Counted from the first letter of the stretch, positions 23,207-31,022 are shown. The stretch is 64,000 bases of DNA from an uncultured Acidimicrobiaceae bacterium (GCA_963775055.1 CAVZHK010000001.1:333402-397401); one strand, 5' to 3'. Notes: generated by a model from the sequence alone, not told the origin. Made by a program: numbers and translations.

Positions 23207-23230
23207 GCGCCGAGGAGCCTTAGCCCGGCG

Positions 23231-24047
23231 CTACCCGCTGTAGCTGTAGCCCAGGCCGGCCCGGGCGTCGTTCTGGATGCCGTAGGGCGGGATGGGTAGC
23301 GCAGGCCGTTGCGGGCACAGCGCTTCCAGCCCGGCGATCATCTTCGGCAGGAACTCCGGCGGCGTGGCCAGCAGCAGCTCGTCGTCCGGCACCCCACCGT
23401 AGCGACGCTCGGCGAAGCAGGGGATGGACACGCGACGGCTCGCGCAGCTTGAGCGCCCTTCCCCAGGAGTCGGCGCAGGCGGACTCGCCCACGCAGCCCC
23501 ACTCGAAGTTCTTGTAGCCGCTCCACTGCAGCCCGTTGATCATCAGGATCATCTGGGCCGGGGTGGCGTAGATCAGGCAGATGTCGGGCGGGTCGAGGCG
23601 GCCGGCCGTCAGCGGGGAAACCGCCAGCGCCTCGTATTGGCCGAATGGCACAGTGTGCATGGCGTGCTGGTGGGCCGCGGCGTCCTCGATGGGTCTTCGA
23701 ACCAGACGCCCGGCCATGCGGCTGCCGGAGAGCCACTCCTCGTCCCGCGGTGACAGACCGACCACCGCGCCGCACTGGGCGCCCACGAAGTCATCGTTGG
23801 TGACGCCCACCGTCCAGCCGATGCGCGACGCCATCCCGACGATCTGGTCCATGGTGTGGATCGACTTGGGCCGACGGATCTTGGGGATGGCCTCCATCTC
23901 GGCTTTGGTGGCGAACAACTTCATGCCGATGGGTGTGGTCCGCAACCGCAGCAGCCGGTTCAGGTCCGCCACCAGCCCGTTCCAGTCATAGTTCCCGGGA
24001 CCGGTGGCTCCGGAGATGGAGACGGTGCGGGCCGCGCTCGGCATCAC
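23231..24047 (-). pseudogene. DUF169 family protein, reading frame broken near 23431-23470
   Basis: The N-terminal 205 codons are in one frame (...YATPAQMILMINGLQWSGYKNFEWGCVGESACADSWG). The conserved-looking C-terminus (SIPCFAERRYGGVPDDELLLATPPEFLPKMIAGLEAL) is in the +1 frame. Confidence 0.6.
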
Positions 24048-24327
24048 TGGTGGTCATGGTCGGACCCTACCCGCCCGCTGTGGTCCGCGGGCGCTGGATC
24101 GCTTGGTGGCCGCCGGCGACGCACCGCGCGAAAGACTTGTGTCCACAGGTATCAGGGGAGCGCTTCGTGACTCCTACACGTCGCACCAGGTCAGATCGGT
24201 TCCGTGACCGGAGGGGGTTCCGGGGCTGCTTGACCGGGCCGCGGCAAGGTGTACGCACCCGTTCCGGTCCCAGTCCTCCCACAAGCCGTGATGGGGGCCG
24301 GTAGGGGCTCCAGCGGGACATATGCCT

Positions 24328-24379
24328 TTCTCCGGTGACGAAATGCAGTCGGGCGGGCGCCCCTTTCGTCACCGGAGAA
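24328..24379. repeat. perfect 16-bp inverted repeat of the TTCTCCGGTGACGAAA motif (20-nt spacer)
   Basis: TTCTCCGGTGACGAAA lies at 24328-24343 and TTTCGTCACCGGAGAA at 24364-24379. This is the same motif family as at 13874-14313. Confidence 0.95.
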
Positions 24380-24481
24380 GCGCCGACGCGCTCCCGCTCG
24401 AACCTCGCCGGTCTTGACAGACCGCCAAAACACCACCAGCGCCCTCACCGGAGCGAGGACGCTGGTCGGGCTCGGGATCGG

Positions 24482-25989
24482 CTAGGCCAAGTTGTCGACG
24501 AAGCCTTCGAGTTGGCGGAGGTTGCGGCATTCGAAGGTGCCGTTGCAGTACTGGCCGTACTCCCCCACGATGGAATCCCCGGTGTCCCAGTACGAGCGGG
24601 GCTCCGGGTTCAGCCAGAACACCGAACGGGCCTTGTTGCGGATCTCCTTGATGATCCAGCTCTGTGATGAGTGGTAGTTGTTGCGGGCGTCACCCAGGAT
24701 CAACACCGTGGACTTGGTGCTGATCTCCTTGCCGTAGCGGTCCCAGAACACCTCGAAGGCATGCCCGTAATCGGAGTGCCCGTCAACCCACACCACATCG
24801 GCCTCGGTGTTGACCTTGTGGATGGCCTCCACGATGTCCTCGGTGGCCTCGAAGTACCGGGTCACCTCGTCCAAACCGTCGATGAAAACGAAGGCCCGAA
24901 CCTGTGAGAACTGGTTGGAGATGGCGTACACCAGGTGCAGGGTGAAACGGGCGAAGGCCGCCACCGAACCGGAGATGTCCGCCACGATCATGATCTCGGG
25001 CTTCTTGGGGCGGGGCCGGCGGAACTTGAGCTCGGCCGGCACCCCGCCGTAGGACAGCGAATGGCGCACGGTGTTGCGGAAGTCCAGCGCCCCCAGCCGA
25101 CCATGGCGCCGCTTGCGTTGGAGGCGAACCGCCAGCTTGCGGGTCAGCGGGTAGATGGCCTTGCGGAGCTTGACCATCTCCTCCCGGGAGGCGTGCATGA
25201 AATCCACGTCCTCCGGCAGCGGCTTGCGCAACGTCTTGGCCATCGCTTCCACGCCGCGATCCGCCACCAAACGGCGGCGGATCTCGGCCTCGATCTCCTT
25301 GCGCAGCTGCTCGACCCGGTTCTCGTACTCGTCGTTGGCCAAGCGGGATTCGAGCGGGGTCATCTCCCCGCCCACCTTGGCCTGCTCTTCCTGCATGAGA
25401 CGGGCCATCACGGCGTCGAGATCGAGGTTCCGGAGCGTGCGGTAGAGGTAGTACGTGCCACCGACGGGCCGACCGGGTTCCATGCCGGCGAAGCGCTTCA
25501 CCGAGATGCGGGCCACCATCTTCATGAGGCCACGATCGCCGCTCATCATGGCCTGGTACAGCATCTCGGCCAGCTCTTCGGGGGTGACCTGGTTGCCGCC
25601 GCCACCGCCGCGACCCTGACCTTCGCCCTCACCCTCGCCGTCGCCGTCCCCTTCGCCCTCGTCGTCGCCTTCTTCGTCGTTGGCGTTGGACGGGTCATCG
25701 GGATTGTTGAAGGTCGTACTGATCGCCCCGCAGCGCGAAGTAGATCTCGAAAACGGTCTCGAAGGCCTTCCAATGGTTCTGGTTCTTGACCATGGTGGCG
25801 GCGAGGGCGTACTTGAAGGCCTCACGGTCTTCGAGGGGAATGTGCTTGACCGCCAACATGGCGTCGAGGTTCTCGGTGAGGCTCACCGGGATGCCGGCGT
25901 TGCGCAGCTCCAGGACGAATCCGTTGAGCAGCTCCAGCAGCGGCTGACCTATACCGGGGGGTACGGCATGGATCCTCGACGACGGTCAT
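24482..25989 (-). pseudogene. VWA domain protein, CoxE-like, with two frame breaks (near 25956-25961 and 25712-25713)
   Basis: The N-terminal part (MTVVEDP..., then PLLELLNGFVLELRNAGIPVSLTENLDAMLAVKHIPLEDREAFKYAL...FEIYF) is split over two frames. An acidic Gly/Glu linker and the VWA_CoxE-like C-terminal 400 aa are intact (IMIVADISGSV...VLILGDARNN...VFWLNPE). Confidence 0.7.
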
Positions 25990-26890
25990 GATGATGCCTT
26001 TTGGAATTTGGACGGCCCGCTCTAGCAACCCTTGGAGAGCCTTGGAGATGTCCGTCTGGTACTTGAGCAGCACGTGCAGCGTATCCACCGCGTCGGCTTC
26101 GGTCACCTGCTGCACGCCCAGCAACATCAGGGTCTTGGCCCAATCCAGGGTCTCGGACACCGACGGTGCCTTCTTCAGATCCAGGTTGCGGATGGTGCGC
26201 ACGATGCGGGCCACCTGGTCTGCCAGGCTCTGGCGTGATGTCGGGCACCTTGGTGAGCACGATCTCGCGCTCACGGTCAATGTCCGGATAGTCGATGTGC
26301 AGGAACAGGCAACGGCGCTTGAGGGCCTCGGAAAGCTCACGGGTGTTGTTCGAGGTCAGGAACACCAAGGGGATCTGGGTGGCGGTGATGGTGCCCAGTT
26401 CCGGGATCGACACCTGGTAGTCCGAGAGGATCTCCAGCAGCAGCGCCTCGGTCTCGATCTCGAGGCGGTCGACCTCGTCGATCAGCAGCACCACCGGGTC
26501 CGTGGCCCGGATGGCCTCTAGCAGCGGGCGTGTCATGAGGAAGTCCTGGGAGAAGATGTCATCGGACATCTCATCCCAGTTCAAGCCGGCATCGCTGGTG
26601 TTGCGCTCGGCCTGGATGCGCAGCAGCTGCTTCTTGTAGTTCCACTCGTAGAGCGCCTTGGCCTCATCCAGACCCTCGTAGCACTGCAGGCGGATGAGCC
26701 GTGCGCCCAGGGTCTCGGCCACTGATTTGGCCAGCTGGGTCTTGCCGGTACCGGCGGGACCTTCAACCAGCACCGGCTTACCGAGGCGATCTGCGAGGTA
26801 CACCACCCCGGCAATGCCTTCGTCCGCCAGGTAGTCCACCTTGGCCAGAGACTCGCGGACGGTCGGCACCGATTCGAAACGAGGATCCAT
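25986..26890 (-). pseudogene. MoxR/CoxD-type AAA+ ATPase with two frame breaks (near 26226-26233 and 25999-26002)
   Basis: Walker A ([13 protein letters not shown]), Walker B (VLLIDEVDR), LTSNNTRELSEALKRRC, then a frame change into SLADQVARIVRTIRNLDLKKAPSVSETLDWAKTL...LLKYQTD. After correction, the stop TGA overlaps the VWA ATG (ATGA). Confidence 0.7.
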
Positions 26891-26917: not shown

Positions 26918-28681
26918 TTGGTCGCAATTCTTCTGACGGCCCCGTCAACTCGCCCGCCACGTGGCCTGTGCGGTCTCGCCACGGCTTTCGACCGCTACCG
27001 TGACGCCGTGACCTCGCCCCTGGAGGACGCCCTCGACGACTTTGTCACAGAGGTCGGATCAGCCCTTGCCGACGCCATGGTCGCCACCGGCACCGCGGCC
27101 GGCACCGCCACCGGGGACCAGGCTCGCCGCGACGCCCTGCTGGAGGCGTTCTCCCTGGTCTGCGCGGTTCTCGACGCCGACGGACGGCTGGCTGATGACG
27201 AGCTGTGGGCCCTGATCACCGTGTTCGGACCCCGTCTGGGCGGTGAGCTGACCGGGGCTGATCCCGCGTCGTTGCGCCGCGGCGGGCTGGTCTCGGGCCG
27301 CTCCGCGTGGCTGTCGGAGCCCTCGGCGCTGTTCGACACGTTGGTGTGGTTCGACGGGGCGCGGGGCAGCACCCATGCCCGGACCTACACCAACCGGGCC
27401 TTCCGTTTGGGTCTCTCCACCGCGGCGGTGGACTTCATGACCTCGGAGTCTGAGATCCTGGCCATCGAACAGCTCCGGGGGATGCTGCTGCGGGCCCGGG
27501 CAGCCGGGGAGAGCGGCTCGGGTGGTGCTGCGTCAGGGCCAACGTCGCGGACCGCAGCGTTCGGGCGCAGCTCCCCGCGAATCGACGGCGAATCGGCGCT
27601 GGGACCCGATGGGGCCGCGCCGAATCCGGCGACGACCACCGTTGGCCGTCCACCCGGCGCGGCGGCCAACGACACGGCCGGATCCAGTGCCGCCGAGAAC
27701 GAAGCGCTGGCGCCACCGCGACCGTTGGAGGACCTCTTGGCTGCGCTCGACCAGCTGATCGGGCTGGCCGGCGTGAAGGGCGAGGTCAAGCTGGTGGCCA
27801 ACCTGCTCGCAGTGCAGCAACTGCGCCGTGAGCGGGGTCTGCCGGTGCTGGCGCAGAGCCGGCATCTGGTGTTCACCGGCAACCCCGGCACCGGTAAGAC
27901 CACGGTGGCCCGGCTGCTGGCGGAGATCTACCGCACGCTGGGCGTGGTTGATCGGGGCCATCTGACCGAGACCGACCGGGCCGGGTTGGTGGCAGGTTTC
28001 GTGGGACAGACGGCCCTCAAGGTCACCGCCCTCTTCGACGCCGCCGACGAGGGCGTGCTGCTCATCGACGAGGCCTACACCCTGGCCCGGGGCGGCGAGC
28101 GGGACTTCGGACGGGAGGCCATCGACACCATCGTCAAGCTGATCGAGGACCGGAGGGATTCCATCGTGGTCATCGCCGCCGGCTATCCCGTCGAGATGGC
28201 TGAGTTCGTCGACGCCAACCCCGGGTTGCGCTCCCGCTTCCCCAAGACCATCTTCTTCCCCGACTACAGCACCGACGAGCTGGTCGAGATCTTCAAAAGG
28301 TTGGGCCAGTCCAACCGCTACCACGCCGACCAGTCCGCCCTCGCGGCGGTGCGAACGTTCTTCGACGCCCAGTCCCGGGACCAGGGCTTCGGCAACGCCC
28401 GCCTGGCCCGCAACCTGTTCGAAGCCGCCGTGGCCCGCCACGCCTCCCGGCTGATGACCGCGGTGAGCCAGTCCGAACCACCGCAACCCCCCACCGGGGA
28501 CCCCGGCGGCCTCCCGACCGAACCACCCGACCACCGCGCCGACAACGCGACCGGGTCAAGCACCGAGGACGCCGAACCGGCCCCGCTGGGGCCGGTTCGG
28601 CCGCATCCATTGGCCGAGGTCACCGACGACGAGCTCACCACCCTGCAGGTCGAGGACATTCCGACCACGCTGTCAACGTAG
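26918..28681 (+). CDS. CbxX/CfxQ/SpoVK-type AAA+ ATPase with N-terminal TerB-like domain
   Basis: The C-terminal module has [18 protein letters not shown], Walker A ([16 protein letters not shown]), Walker B ([10 protein letters not shown]) and an arginine-finger region (IAAGYP...NPGLRSRF). The N-terminal 190 aa has a [14 protein letters not shown] motif, and a Gly/Ser/Ala/Pro linker joins the two. An alternative GTG start lies at 27008. Confidence 0.85.
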
Positions 28682-28711
28682 GCGCCGCTCGAAGCTGGCC
28701 AATGGGGACGC

Positions 28712-29584
28712 TTGTCGCGGCGCCACCCCCCTGGGGCCATCACCCTGAGGGACGGCGAGCCCACCAAATCCCACCCCCGCCAGGGCGCGCCGGCCTCGCC
28801 ACCGATTGAAGGTATCTCGGCGCTCGAACGTGGTGACTACGTTGGCCAAGTGACAGCAGTGGTTCTGATCGTGGTGCTCCTGGGACTGGTGAGCGTGGGC
28901 GCCGTGGCGGTGGTGGCGGCTCGCCGGCGACCGGGCCTGCGAGCGGCGGTGGAAACTGACGGTCGGGACGGCGGCAGCGCCATCCAGATCGACCCCTTTG
29001 GTGTCAGCGAGCCATGGCGACAGTTCGTGCAACATGCCCTGCACGCCCGGGATCAGTTCCGGGTCACGTTGCGCGGCGCTCGAAGGGGACCGCTGCGGGC
29101 TCAGCTGGAGGACATCGGCGAGTCCCTCGACGGTGGCATGGCACGGGCCTGGGCCACCGCCCAGCACGGCCATCGCCTGAGCCAGGCCCGGGGCCGCATC
29201 GACACCGACCGGCTCACGGCCGACCTGAACCAACAGCCGGCCGACGGGGTCGGTGGCGGCGCCCCGGACGGGCGGGGTGGTCAGCTTCCGGGCCAGCCGA
29301 CGGGGGCGATGGCCAACCCATCAGCGACGGACGGTGACGCCATACGGGAGTCCCTGCAGGCCCAGCTGGATTCGGCTTATCGGCTTGACCAGATCATCGC
29401 AAACGCCGAGCAGCAGCTCCGGCTCCTCACCACCCAGCTCGACGAGGCGGCGACCCGGGCGGGCGAGTTGGCGGTAAGGGCCGGTACCGGCGATGCGCTG
29501 GAGGCGGTGGCGGCGGACATCACCCGGGCCTCGGACCAGCTCGAGGCATTGCGGCTGGCAATGGAGGAAACCGACCGCCTCTGA
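28712..29584 (+). CDS. membrane-anchored coiled-coil protein of unknown function
   Basis: One TM helix (VTAVVLIVVLLGLVSVGAVAVVAA) and a helical region (DPFGVSEPWRQFVQHALHARDQF...). The C-terminal heptad-like segment is LQAQLDSAYRLDQIIANAEQQLRLLTTQLDEA. The start is uncertain, and GTG 28850 is possible. Confidence 0.7.
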   Translation: MSRRHPPGAITLRDGEPTKSHPRQGAPASPPIEGISALERGDYVGQVTAVVLIVVLLGLVSVGAVAVVAARRRPGLRAAVETDGRDGGSAIQIDPFGVSEPWRQFVQHALHARDQFRVTLRGARRGPLRAQLEDIGESLDGGMARAWATAQHGHRLSQARGRIDTDRLTADLNQQPADGVGGGAPDGRGGQLPGQPTGAMANPSATDGDAIRESLQAQLDSAYRLDQIIANAEQQLRLLTTQLDEAATRAGELAVRAGTGDALEAVAADITRASDQLEALRLAMEETDRL

Positions 29585-29586
29585 GG

Positions 29587-29620
29587 CCGGTGCCCAGGGC
29601 CCCACACGGCCGGGCACCGG
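29587..29620 (+). promoter_or_regulatory. strong hairpin between the coiled-coil gene and pspA (terminator or attenuator)
   Basis: CCGGTGCCC..GGCC-CCACAC-GGCC-GGGCACCGG lies immediately after the stop at 29584 and 52 nt before the pspA ATG. There is no U tract. Confidence 0.4.
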
Positions 29621-29672
29621 AGCAGCGGATATCGCCGTCGGCCGGTGGATCACACCGGTAGGCTTTCCGCTC

Positions 29673-30497
29673 ATGCTGAAGCTCGCCCGACGTTGGTGGA
29701 AGTACCTCACGGCCAAGCTGACGGGGTCGTTCAATGAGCGGGCCGATCCCAAGGTCCAGCTCGAGCAGGCCATCATGGAGGCCCAGGAGCAGCACAGCCG
29801 GCTCAAAGAGCAGGCGGCCAACGTCATCGCCATCCAGAAGCAGTCCGAGCTGCAGCTGAACCGCAAGCTGGACGAGCTGGAGAAGCTGTCGGGCCAGACC
29901 CGCCAAGCGGTGGTCATGGCCGATGACGCCACCAAAGCCGGCAACGCCACCAAGGCCGCCGATTACGCCCGGGCCGCGGAAGCGTTGGCCACCCGGCTCA
30001 TCGCCCTCGAGAATGAGATCAATGACCTCAAGGCCCGCTCGTTGCAGGCGGCGCAGGCGTCAGACCAGGCCAAGGCCGCGGTGACGCAGAACTCGTCGAT
30101 CTTGCAGAAGCGCCTGGCCGAGAAGAACCAGCTCATGGGCCAGCTGGAGCAGGCCAAGATGCAGGAGCAGATGAACACCGCCATGGCCTCCCTCAACGAG
30201 ACCGTGGGGGCTGACGTGCCCACCTTCAACGAGATCCGGGACAAGATCGAGGCCCGTTACGCCAAGGCCACCGGTACCGCTGAGCTCGAGGGCGACTCGG
30301 TGGAGAGCCGCATCCTGGAAGTCGAAGCGGCCGCGCAGAATGTGGAGGCCGCCACCCGGCTGGCCCAGATCCGGGCCCAGCTCGGCATGGCCCCCGCCGC
30401 CGAACCAGCCCAACTACCCACCGCGGCAGCCGTCCCCGACAAGCCGGTGGCCGACGCCACGCCGGCCCAGCCCCAAGCCGAACCCAGCGCCGGCTGA
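29673..30497 (+). CDS. pspA: PspA/IM30/Vipp1 family protein (bacterial ESCRT-III-like)
   Basis: MLKLARRWWKYLTAKLTGSFNERADPKVQLEQAIMEAQEQHSRLKEQAANVIA..., with long coiled coils throughout. The start is placed at ATG 29673. Confidence 0.9.
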   Translation: MLKLARRWWKYLTAKLTGSFNERADPKVQLEQAIMEAQEQHSRLKEQAANVIAIQKQSELQLNRKLDELEKLSGQTRQAVVMADDATKAGNATKAADYARAAEALATRLIALENEINDLKARSLQAAQASDQAKAAVTQNSSILQKRLAEKNQLMGQLEQAKMQEQMNTAMASLNETVGADVPTFNEIRDKIEARYAKATGTAELEGDSVESRILEVEAAAQNVEAATRLAQIRAQLGMAPAAEPAQLPTAAAVPDKPVADATPAQPQAEPSAG

Positions 30498-30668: not shown

Positions 30669-31022
30669 ATGGCGACGGTGTGGGTTGCCCTGGCCGGGGC
30701 CGCGGGGGCGGTGGCGCGCTACCGCATCGGCATGGCGGTGGGCGTCCGGTCCTTCCCGTGGGCCACGCTGAGCATCAACATCGCCGGCTGTTTCGTGCTG
30801 GCGGCGTTGGCCGCGGGGCCCGCTGCCCGCTGGTCACCCACCGTGTCTGTGGCGCTGACGGTCGGGTTCCTGGGGGCCTTCACCACGTTCTCGACGTTCG
30901 GGTACGAAACGATCACGCTGGTTCGCACCGACCGACCGGGCCTGGCCGCGCTGTACGTCGGGGCCTCCCTTGTCGGGGGGTTGGGGGCCAGTGCGGGCGG
31001 CTACCTGCTGGGCCGGGGCTGA
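30669..31022 (+). CDS. crcB: fluoride ion channel CrcB/FluC
   Basis: 117 aa, four TM helices, and the motifs FPWATLSINIAGCFVL and GFLGAFTTFSTF. Confidence 0.9.
   Translation: MATVWVALAGAAGAVARYRIGMAVGVRSFPWATLSINIAGCFVLAALAAGPAARWSPTVSVALTVGFLGAFTTFSTFGYETITLVRTDRPGLAALYVGASLVGGLGASAGGYLLGRG

Follow-up and report, generated by a model that had tools for sequence, protein, structure and literature searches.

The stretch of DNA analysed here, called the window below, comprises 64,000 nucleotides from an uncultured Acidimicrobiaceae bacterium (GCA_963775055.1, CAVZHK010000001.1:333402-397401). At positions 26918-30497 it carries genes for an AAA+ ATPase (g1), for a membrane-anchored helical protein (g2) and for PspA/IM30. 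An earlier note on this sequence had proposed that the three gene products act together as a triad of ATPase, membrane adaptor and PspA, by analogy with Vps4 and ESCRT-III. The calls of open reading frames (ORFs) gave three co-directional genes, as the note had claimed, and with revised starts they are as follows.

27008-28681, plus strand: g1, AAA+ ATPase, 557 aa, start GTG 27008, based on a 20-sequence alignment and the public call P0001 (557 aa)
28850-29584, plus strand: g2, membrane-anchored helical-bundle protein, 244 aa, start GTG 28850
29673-30497, plus strand: PspA/IM30 (PF04012), 274 aa, start ATG 29673

The length of 587 aa first given for g1 is that of the longest ORF only, and both the homologues and the public call point to 557 aa from GTG 27008. 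The gap of 88 bp between g2 and pspA stands, but that between g1 and g2, given as 30 bp, becomes about 168 bp after the start correction. Alignment with homologues makes GTG 28850 the most likely start of g2, for which the public call is 237 aa. All three genes are intact in the window, as are proB and the DAHP synthase gene. The GC content of the window is about 0.68, and a composition scan found no break around the locus.

The assignment of the AAA+ module of g1 to the SpoVK/CbxX type was borne out. The protein matches the Pfam families AAA (PF00004, 2.7e-15) and AAA_lid_6, its best NCBIfam matches are SpoVK (2.8e-79), EccA (4.7e-64) and CbbX (1.1e-63), and its best sequence matches in the PDB are CbbX (5e-52) and EccA1 (5e-41). 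The protein can be divided into four parts.

27008-27505, plus strand: N-terminal domain, all-helical, about 165 aa with eight helices in an AlphaFold2 (AF2) model, presumed to recruit the client
27506-27724, plus strand: low-complexity Ala/Gly/Pro/Ser linker from the N-terminal domain to the AAA+ module, varying in length and unaligned among homologues
27725-28471, plus strand: AAA+ module plus lid, delimited by the Pfam, NCBIfam and CbbX/EccA1 PDB matches and by invariant alignment columns
28472-28681, plus strand: C-terminal tail, made up of a low-complexity insert specific to the lineage and then the motif (T/S)DxELTTLxxxDIP

A higher-order SpoVK/EccA/CbbX clade has been defined in a 2024 PNAS study by three features, namely the GY signature, a sensor-2 Arg and an Asn that precedes the Arg finger by four residues, and its members have been described as specialised chaperones with narrow clients that are recruited by variable N-terminal domains (PMC11513918). 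We examined these features in an alignment of 20 g1 sequences; residue numbers for the AAA+ motifs and the C-terminal tail follow the 587-aa ORF, not the 557-aa protein. Walker A (GNPGTGKT, 321-328), the Walker B residues DE (384-385), the GY signature at 422-423 in the sensor-1 region (A421-G422-Y423), N434 four residues ahead of the Arg finger R438 (R438/R440) and the sensor-2 residues R495/R498 within GNARLARN are all invariant. The segment GFVGQT (360-365), with the family form G-F/Y-V-G-Q-T, is a canonical pore loop 1 and is likewise kept throughout the alignment. The tail motif is kept in 20/20 homologues, with L573 and D580 invariant and T575 and L576 nearly so. Judged by these motifs, all of which are intact, g1 is a member of the SpoVK/EccA/CbbX clade and a predicted hexamer-type AAA+ protein. 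Against the NCBIfam equivalog cut-offs of 423, 459 and 467 bits it scores 266, 215 and 217 bits, respectively, and thus below all three, and no rbcLS, ESX or sporulation context was found in the neighbourhoods examined. These sub-cut-off scores, the different N-terminal domain and the other genomic context indicate that g1 is not SpoVK, CbbX or EccA proper.

The N-terminal domain had been described as TerB-like, a description that profile comparison did not support. None of 31 members matches TerB, or any other Pfam family, at E<=10, and hhalign of the domain profile against verified TerB gave a probability of 2% over one 28-residue helix-D-x-x-x-E-helix stretch. Sequence-profile searches of the PDB returned no match, and Foldseek against the PDB found nothing better than E~1. 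On sequence and profile we therefore rejected TerB (PF05099) as the identity of the domain and regard the likeness as one of motif level only. The MIT domain was likewise without a Pfam match in g1. The AF2 model of the domain has a predicted local distance difference test (pLDDT) score of 95.5 and a predicted template modelling score of 0.91. Conserved residues of the domain, which spans residues 1-166 of the 557-aa protein, are F12, D56/D58/D63, W67, R90, Y127, D142 and E149. Among 1.84 billion proteins its profile matches only 320 cluster representatives, and in most of these the matching region starts no more than a few residues into the protein. By profile and model, it is a new, family-specific helical domain that is confidently predicted to fold. 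Apparent fusions of the domain to radical SAM, methyltransferase or TPR sequences occur in database proteins. They were not used as Rosetta-stone evidence because they resemble gene calls that were merged or truncated on short, GC-rich contigs, a view suggested by the locus L012, where a radical SAM gene lies directly upstream of g1. The g1 ORF of L012 (7668-10643), from an Acidimicrobiia metagenome-assembled genome, is 991 aa long, with about 400 extra residues that have no Pfam match; a paralogue, a fused gene or an artefact of read-through would each account for it.

The third gene is PspA/IM30, as had been proposed. It matches PF04012 with 1.1e-24 and 87.7 bits (cut-off 33.9) over profile positions 5-217 of 220, and its C-terminal tail is rich in Pro, Ala and acidic residues, variable and not conserved in alignments.

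g2 has no Pfam or NCBIfam match. It had been taken for a single-pass membrane protein with a long coiled coil; the N-terminal transmembrane helix and the all-helical character stand, but in place of the coiled coil AF2 predicts, after a short linker, a compact five-helix bundle (pLDDT 86.4). The residues RRR follow directly after the transmembrane helix, so that under the positive-inside rule the C-terminal bundle of about 200 aa (residues 45-244) is predicted to lie on the cytoplasmic side. The soluble domain opens with a strictly conserved motif.

28988-29020, plus strand: IDPFxxxEPWR motif of g2

In alignments, longer relatives of g2 have a two-helix hairpin anchor and a conserved N-terminus, SFRDRFFTPP. 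The family comprises 52 database matches, and every one with a named source comes from Acidimicrobiia or from an unclassified actinobacterial metagenome-assembled genome, which suggests that the family is found only in this lineage. A sequence-profile search of the PDB found nothing for g2, and Foldseek against the PDB found nothing below E = 0.03 and no PspA/ESCRT-III structure among its matches. An ESCRT-III/PspA-like, BAR-like or other known fold was rejected for g2; TM-scores stayed below 0.33 for the weak matches, which were to designed helical bundles and to Pil1/Lsp1. Two database proteins, P0171 (432 aa) and P0172 (502 aa), consist of a g2-like part and extra sequence, which in P0171 carries a MurJ Pfam domain; they are either genuine g2-MurJ fusions or merged calls of overlapping genes.

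We then compared the neighbourhoods of g1. A scan of one genome per species yielded 26 loci that matched over both the N-terminal domain and the AAA+ module, and 52 control loci from other phyla that matched over the AAA+ module only. The 26 loci are mostly from Acidimicrobiia, including Microthrixaceae, Ilumatobacter and Acidimicrobiaceae. PspA is encoded downstream of g1 on the same strand in 23 of the 25 evaluable loci, the window and its three closest relatives (L081, L082 and L083) being counted in, and near the AAA+ gene in 0/52 control loci, an HMM search included. The two g1 loci that lack PspA, L012 (none within 8 kb of g1) and L023, have unrelated contexts and are uninformative.

The gene content between g1 and pspA varies among these loci. 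The fullest form, g1-X1-X2-g2-MurJ-PspA, is found in L002, L004, L006, L007, L009, L010, L017, L020 and L022. MurJ is missing from the cluster in L001, L014 and L024, and X1 and X2 are missing in L021 and L028. MurJ alone separates g1 from PspA in L008, L011, L015, L018 and L025. The compact g1-g2-PspA triad occurs in the window, L081, L082, L083 and L133, the last from a metagenome scan. X1 is an exported protein of about 285-350 aa with an N-terminal signal or anchor and no Pfam match, and X2 is an exported lipoprotein of about 615 aa with a solute-binding-protein (SBP) domain and a C-terminal VWA domain. The additional genes have the following positions, in the relatives' own coordinates.

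X1 and X2, between g1 and g2: L001 9910-12611; L006 9398-12282; L017 9410-12207
murJ (lipid II flippase), between g2 and pspA in most relatives: L021 10053-11675; L006 13096-14811

The triad of the window is thus a reduced form of a larger Acidimicrobiia cluster, g1-(X1)-(SBP+VWA lipoprotein)-(g2)-(MurJ)-PspA. X1, X2 and MurJ were found nowhere in the 64-kb window, which suggests that murJ was moved or lost from the locus in the lineage with the compact triad. In the relatives, 4-bp stop/start overlaps join g1 to X1, to g2 (L082 and L083) or to MurJ (L008, L011 and L015), and often g2 to MurJ, and the gaps between MurJ and PspA are 9-56 bp. In L014 and L024 the cluster is intact without the MoxR-VWA genes that lie upstream in other loci and without the downstream proB-obg genes.

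The genes of the cluster lie on one strand and overlap by 4 bp in relatives, as expected of an operon, yet in the window g1, g2 and pspA are each preceded by a hexamer of the form TANNNT.

26996-27001, plus strand: TACCGT, -10-like TANNNT, putative leaderless promoter 6 nt before the g1 GTG
28838-28843, plus strand: TACGTT, -10-like hexamer 6 nt before the g2 GTG, hexamer and spacing identical in L081
29659-29664, plus strand: TAGGCT, putative leaderless pspA promoter 8 nt before the PspA ATG
29587-29620, plus strand: GC-rich hairpin after the g2 stop, found by folding, without a U-tract and not called by a terminator scan

A TANNNT hexamer just before the start codon is the architecture of actinobacterial leaderless promoters. 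In 20/21 loci, 6-8 nt separate the end of such a hexamer (consensus TAGGCT) from the PspA ATG, against a background of 1.4% of all ATG triplets in the examined loci. The sequence around it is not conserved, and it persists even where fewer than 25 nt lie between it and the stop codon of the upstream gene. Inspection by eye showed no evident Shine-Dalgarno sequence ahead of pspA. TANNNT also occurs at a similar spacing before g1 in L081, L082, L083, L011, L015, L018, L013 and L017. Since the conserved spacing of the hexamer matches the leaderless architecture, we predict that pspA has its own leaderless transcript from an internal promoter conserved across Acidimicrobiia. The genes in the window may form three tandem transcription units, with predicted leaderless starts at 27008, 28850 and 29673 and possibly with read-through, and because each appears to have its own leaderless promoter, the amounts of g1, g2 and PspA are probably set transcriptionally. 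The hairpin between g2 and pspA had been suggested to set their stoichiometry. It does exist, and the 106 nt around it fold at -56 kcal/mol (z = -3.0), but it is absent from the three closest relatives, and the conserved promoter-like hexamer of pspA leaves its proposed role unsupported. With neither conservation nor a U-tract, it was also rejected as a conserved regulatory element. The hairpin might terminate the transcript of g2 before the promoter of pspA.

Several known systems offer points of comparison. As in the Vps4/CdvC-ESCRT-III systems, an AAA+ protein with a helical N-terminal domain is encoded beside an ESCRT-III superfamily gene; g1 has the canonical aromatic-hydrophobic-Gly pore loop and would plausibly recycle polymer subunits. 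However, g1 belongs with SpoVK, EccA and CbbX, whereas Vps4 is in the Vps4/katanin meiotic clade; its N-terminal domain is not an MIT domain and has no fold match in the PDB; and the tail of PspA shows no conserved MIM-like docking motif. Moreover, g1 is dispensable in many related lineages, whereas Vps4 is the defining companion of archaeal ESCRT-III (2025 review). With SpoVK-MurG, CbbX-Rubisco and EccA-ESX, g1 shares the AAA+ module with GY, Asn-4 and sensor-2 Arg, the combination of a variable N-terminal domain with a well-conserved ATPase, and an envelope-related context. It differs in its N-terminal domain, which is neither the SpoVK beta-alpha domain nor the TPR/beta-helix of EccA nor a CbbX-like beta-prism, and in a new neighbourhood consisting of PspA, g2 and MurJ.

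For other lineages, Ravi et al. (2024) have described PspA next to AAA+ ATPases and likened ATP-dependent remodelling to that of Snf7 by Vps4 (PMC11237479). Their cases are a classical two-domain AAA+ protein with an inactive first domain in Firmicutes (Clostridium sp. BNL1100 is an example) and, in CesT-PspA-band-7 operons, an AAA+ protein with coiled coil and beta-propeller (PMC11237479). As in the window, pspA there lies immediately downstream of the AAA+ gene. Their Acidimicrobium example is a PspA+PspAA fusion and not the g1 cluster, and the paper and its supplement make no mention of SpoVK, CbbX, MurJ or TerB (PMC11237479). Our literature search found nothing on a g1-PspA cluster in Acidimicrobiia. 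What is new here is thus the neighbourhood of PspA with an AAA+ protein of the SpoVK/EccA/CbbX clade; adjacency of AAA+ and PspA genes as such was already known in other phyla.

g2 resembles PspB/PspC of E. coli, LiaI of Bacillus and PspM/Rv2743c of Mycobacterium in being small, membrane-anchored and encoded beside PspA, and its retention with PspA irrespective of g1 is the behaviour expected of a membrane anchor or regulator. It differs from them in having no sequence or Pfam relationship to them, in its predicted cytoplasmic bundle of about 200 aa with IDPFxxxEPWR, and in lying upstream and not downstream of pspA. Among the pspA neighbours there were no matches to PspB/PspC, LiaI/LiaF, Toastrack, PspM/PspN (DUF3046) or a regulator, and the cluster showed nothing resembling the regulators ClgR or PspF. 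PspF is comparable to g1 as an ATPase functionally tied to PspA/Vipp1 oligomers. It is, however, a PspA-regulated enhancer-binding AAA+ protein of the NtrC type with a DNA-binding domain, which g1 lacks. The HSP70B-CDJ2 system of the chloroplast is another ATPase system that reportedly acts on Vipp1 oligomers. A structural paper of 2024 in Nature Structural & Molecular Biology considered that chaperones or PspF may disassemble PspA rods, and a Vps4-like ATPase appears to be absent in bacteria according to a 2025 review.

We suggest, with a probability of roughly 40%, that the locus encodes a functionally linked, Acidimicrobiia-specific envelope-maintenance module in which g1 would serve as an accessory chaperone. 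The other proteins of the extended cluster, namely MurJ and the SBP+VWA lipoprotein, are all envelope-related, which supports such a module. Further support comes from the clade membership and intact motifs of g1, its family-specific N-terminal domain, the presence of PspA downstream in 23 of 25 evaluable loci and near none of the 52 control genes, the persistence of the cluster in L014 and L024, the recurrence of the compact triad, the 4-bp overlaps and short MurJ-PspA gaps, and the predicted topology of g2; a remodelling role has also been proposed for other AAA+ neighbours of PspA (PMC11237479). In the module, g2, placed on the cytoplasmic face, would anchor PspA to the membrane or regulate it, much as LiaI, PspB/C or PspM do. 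On the same face, g1 would be an accessory that uses ATP to remodel a client encoded in the cluster. The candidate client that fits best is PspA in assemblies, alone or g2-bound, since nearly all g1 loci retain PspA and no other partner is retained so widely. g1 might bind this client through its N-terminal domain and thread or pull it through the FVG pore loops, and the threading would release or recycle PspA subunits. That g1 acts directly on PspA in the manner of Vps4 is plausible but, on the comparative evidence, less likely than not. The fuller proposal is about as uncertain: g1, drawn separately from the SpoVK/EccA/CbbX clade, would be for bacteria what Vps4 is elsewhere, with an N-terminal domain that docks on PspA or g2-PspA at the membrane and an FVG pore that extracts subunits. 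The locus is nevertheless a concrete, testable candidate for a dedicated ATP-driven remodeller of PspA/Vipp1 from a different AAA+ clade, and if the proposal were true, an ATP-driven ESCRT-III-like cycle would exist in Acidimicrobiia. Even if PspA is not the client, the clade gains a member with a new N-terminal domain and an envelope context, and a class-specific envelope cluster of g1, X1, SBP-VWA, g2, MurJ and PspA is defined. Cultured relatives exist, e.g., Ilumatobacter nonamiensis (L018) and Iamia spp.

A considerable body of observations weighs against such a module, and above all against PspA as the client of g1. Co-conservation, which the earlier note had set as a test of its idea, holds in one direction only: PspA accompanies g1, but g1 does not reliably accompany PspA. 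When a metagenome scan was made with a PspA alignment, 80 loci were obtained, 19 of which had enough upstream sequence to judge; g1 is present in 11/19 and absent from 8/19. In these eight, a proA-like gene lies between MoxR and the cluster in three, MoxR abuts MurJ in one, SBP/ABC-type genes precede g2 in two, and PspA has a different context in two. The PspAs of g1-less loci are scattered among the g1-bearing ones in similarity clustering, which implies at least five independent losses of g1. Among the features of PspA, none was found that goes with the presence of g1, the tails being equally variable in both groups. Nor does the alignment reveal a conserved docking motif in the PspA tail beyond the last helix. 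g2 is absent from the g1-PspA loci L008, L011, L015, L018, L104 and L108 and cannot, therefore, be the obligatory adaptor of the triad first envisaged. Most relatives have X1, the SBP+VWA lipoprotein and/or MurJ between g1 and PspA, and the conserved pspA hexamer, together with the g2 hexamer in the window, means that co-transcription is not required. The idea of a PspA-associated ATPase is, in view of the report of Ravi et al., not new in principle. Furthermore, the support is purely comparative and comes from the single class Acidimicrobiia, so that there is no independent replication. g2 and MurJ often stay beside PspA where g1 is absent; given this retention and the g1-PspA loci that lack g2, the pattern of g2 is that of a partner of PspA and MurJ, and the pattern of g1 that of a dispensable accessory at the 5' end. 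The proA-like gene (gamma-glutamyl phosphate reductase, about 420 aa, labelled from its N-terminal sequence alone) occupies the position of g1, on the minus strand, in L138 (5151-6428), L146 (7622-8887) and L152 (1428-2675).

Inherited synteny is a serious rival: g1 would happen to lie between MoxR-VWA and an older g2/MurJ/PspA cluster, some other locus would encode its client, and PspA would neither require nor contact it. Within the one class, synteny extends over the entire region nadD-sigma-DAHP synthase-DUF169-VWA-MoxR / cluster / proB-obg, and conservation of the proB-obg and MoxR-VWA flanks nearly equals that of the cluster itself. The repeated loss of g1 without change in PspA, the unrelated contexts of g1 in L012 and L023, the promoter hexamer of pspA and the confinement of the g1 family to one class all fit this explanation. 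However, in many lineages a 4-bp overlap ties g1 to the cluster gene that follows it, the cluster persists in L014 and L024 with both flanks changed, and other examples of the clade are tied to a specific locus or system, e.g., EccA to type VII secretion (PMC11513918). We consider inherited synteny alone not especially likely. A different client is improbable in our estimate: g1 would then be a chaperone for the lipid II/peptidoglycan-precursor pathway or another cluster protein (MurJ, a MurG-like protein, g2 or the export of X1/SBP-VWA), with PspA merely a co-located stress effector. SpoVK, the best NCBIfam match of g1 (2.8e-79), promotes MurG function, and the clade has been proposed to tune envelope synthesis (PMC11513918). 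The overlap of g1 with MurJ, or elsewhere with X1 or g2, and the separate promoter of pspA point the same way. Yet neither the 64-kb window nor the other compact-triad loci contain MurJ, X1 or SBP-VWA, although g1 is intact there, and PspA is the one partner that nearly all g1 loci retain; being exported, X1 and the lipoprotein would also be poor clients for a cytoplasmic AAA+ protein.

It is very improbable that g1 works with the divergent MoxR-VWA-DUF169 genes or that the locus serves in anti-phage defence or conflict. In the window, L081-L083, L008, L011 and L017, g1 and MoxR diverge from a common intergenic region of about 117 bp, but in many g1 loci MoxR is absent or 3-5 kb off, so that the distribution largely refutes a link, and in the window MoxR, VWA and DUF169 are frameshifted while g1 is intact. 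PADLOC gave weak generic AAA matches to IetA and TRIP13, which are at the level of the P-loop only; g2, PspA, X1 and X2 had none, and the locus has no composition anomaly. An anti-phage role was rejected on these grounds, and the module with g1 as accessory chaperone remains our preferred reading.

The flanking genes in the window, whose divergent arrangement agrees with the earlier note and whose frameshifts correct it, are as follows.

23220-26890, minus strand: MoxR/MadB-like AAA, CoxE/MadC-like VWA and DUF169 genes, divergent neighbours that are not part of the module, frameshifted

Single-base indels cause the frameshifts in MoxR, VWA and DUF169, e.g., near 26234, 26023-26038, 25970, 25710 and 23432. 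The orthologues in L081 are intact, with 99% protein identity, and the frameshifts reflect either decay of the MoxR-VWA-DUF169 module or local assembly errors. A literature search on MadB/MadC for the divergent MoxR-VWA pair found nothing relevant. On the other side of the cluster, a gene for a CrcB fluoride channel lies between pspA and proB in the window (30669-31022) and in L081. In L082 an AbiEi/DUF559 gene takes its place, and in L083 nothing is found there; the junction between pspA and proB is thus a small variable spot.

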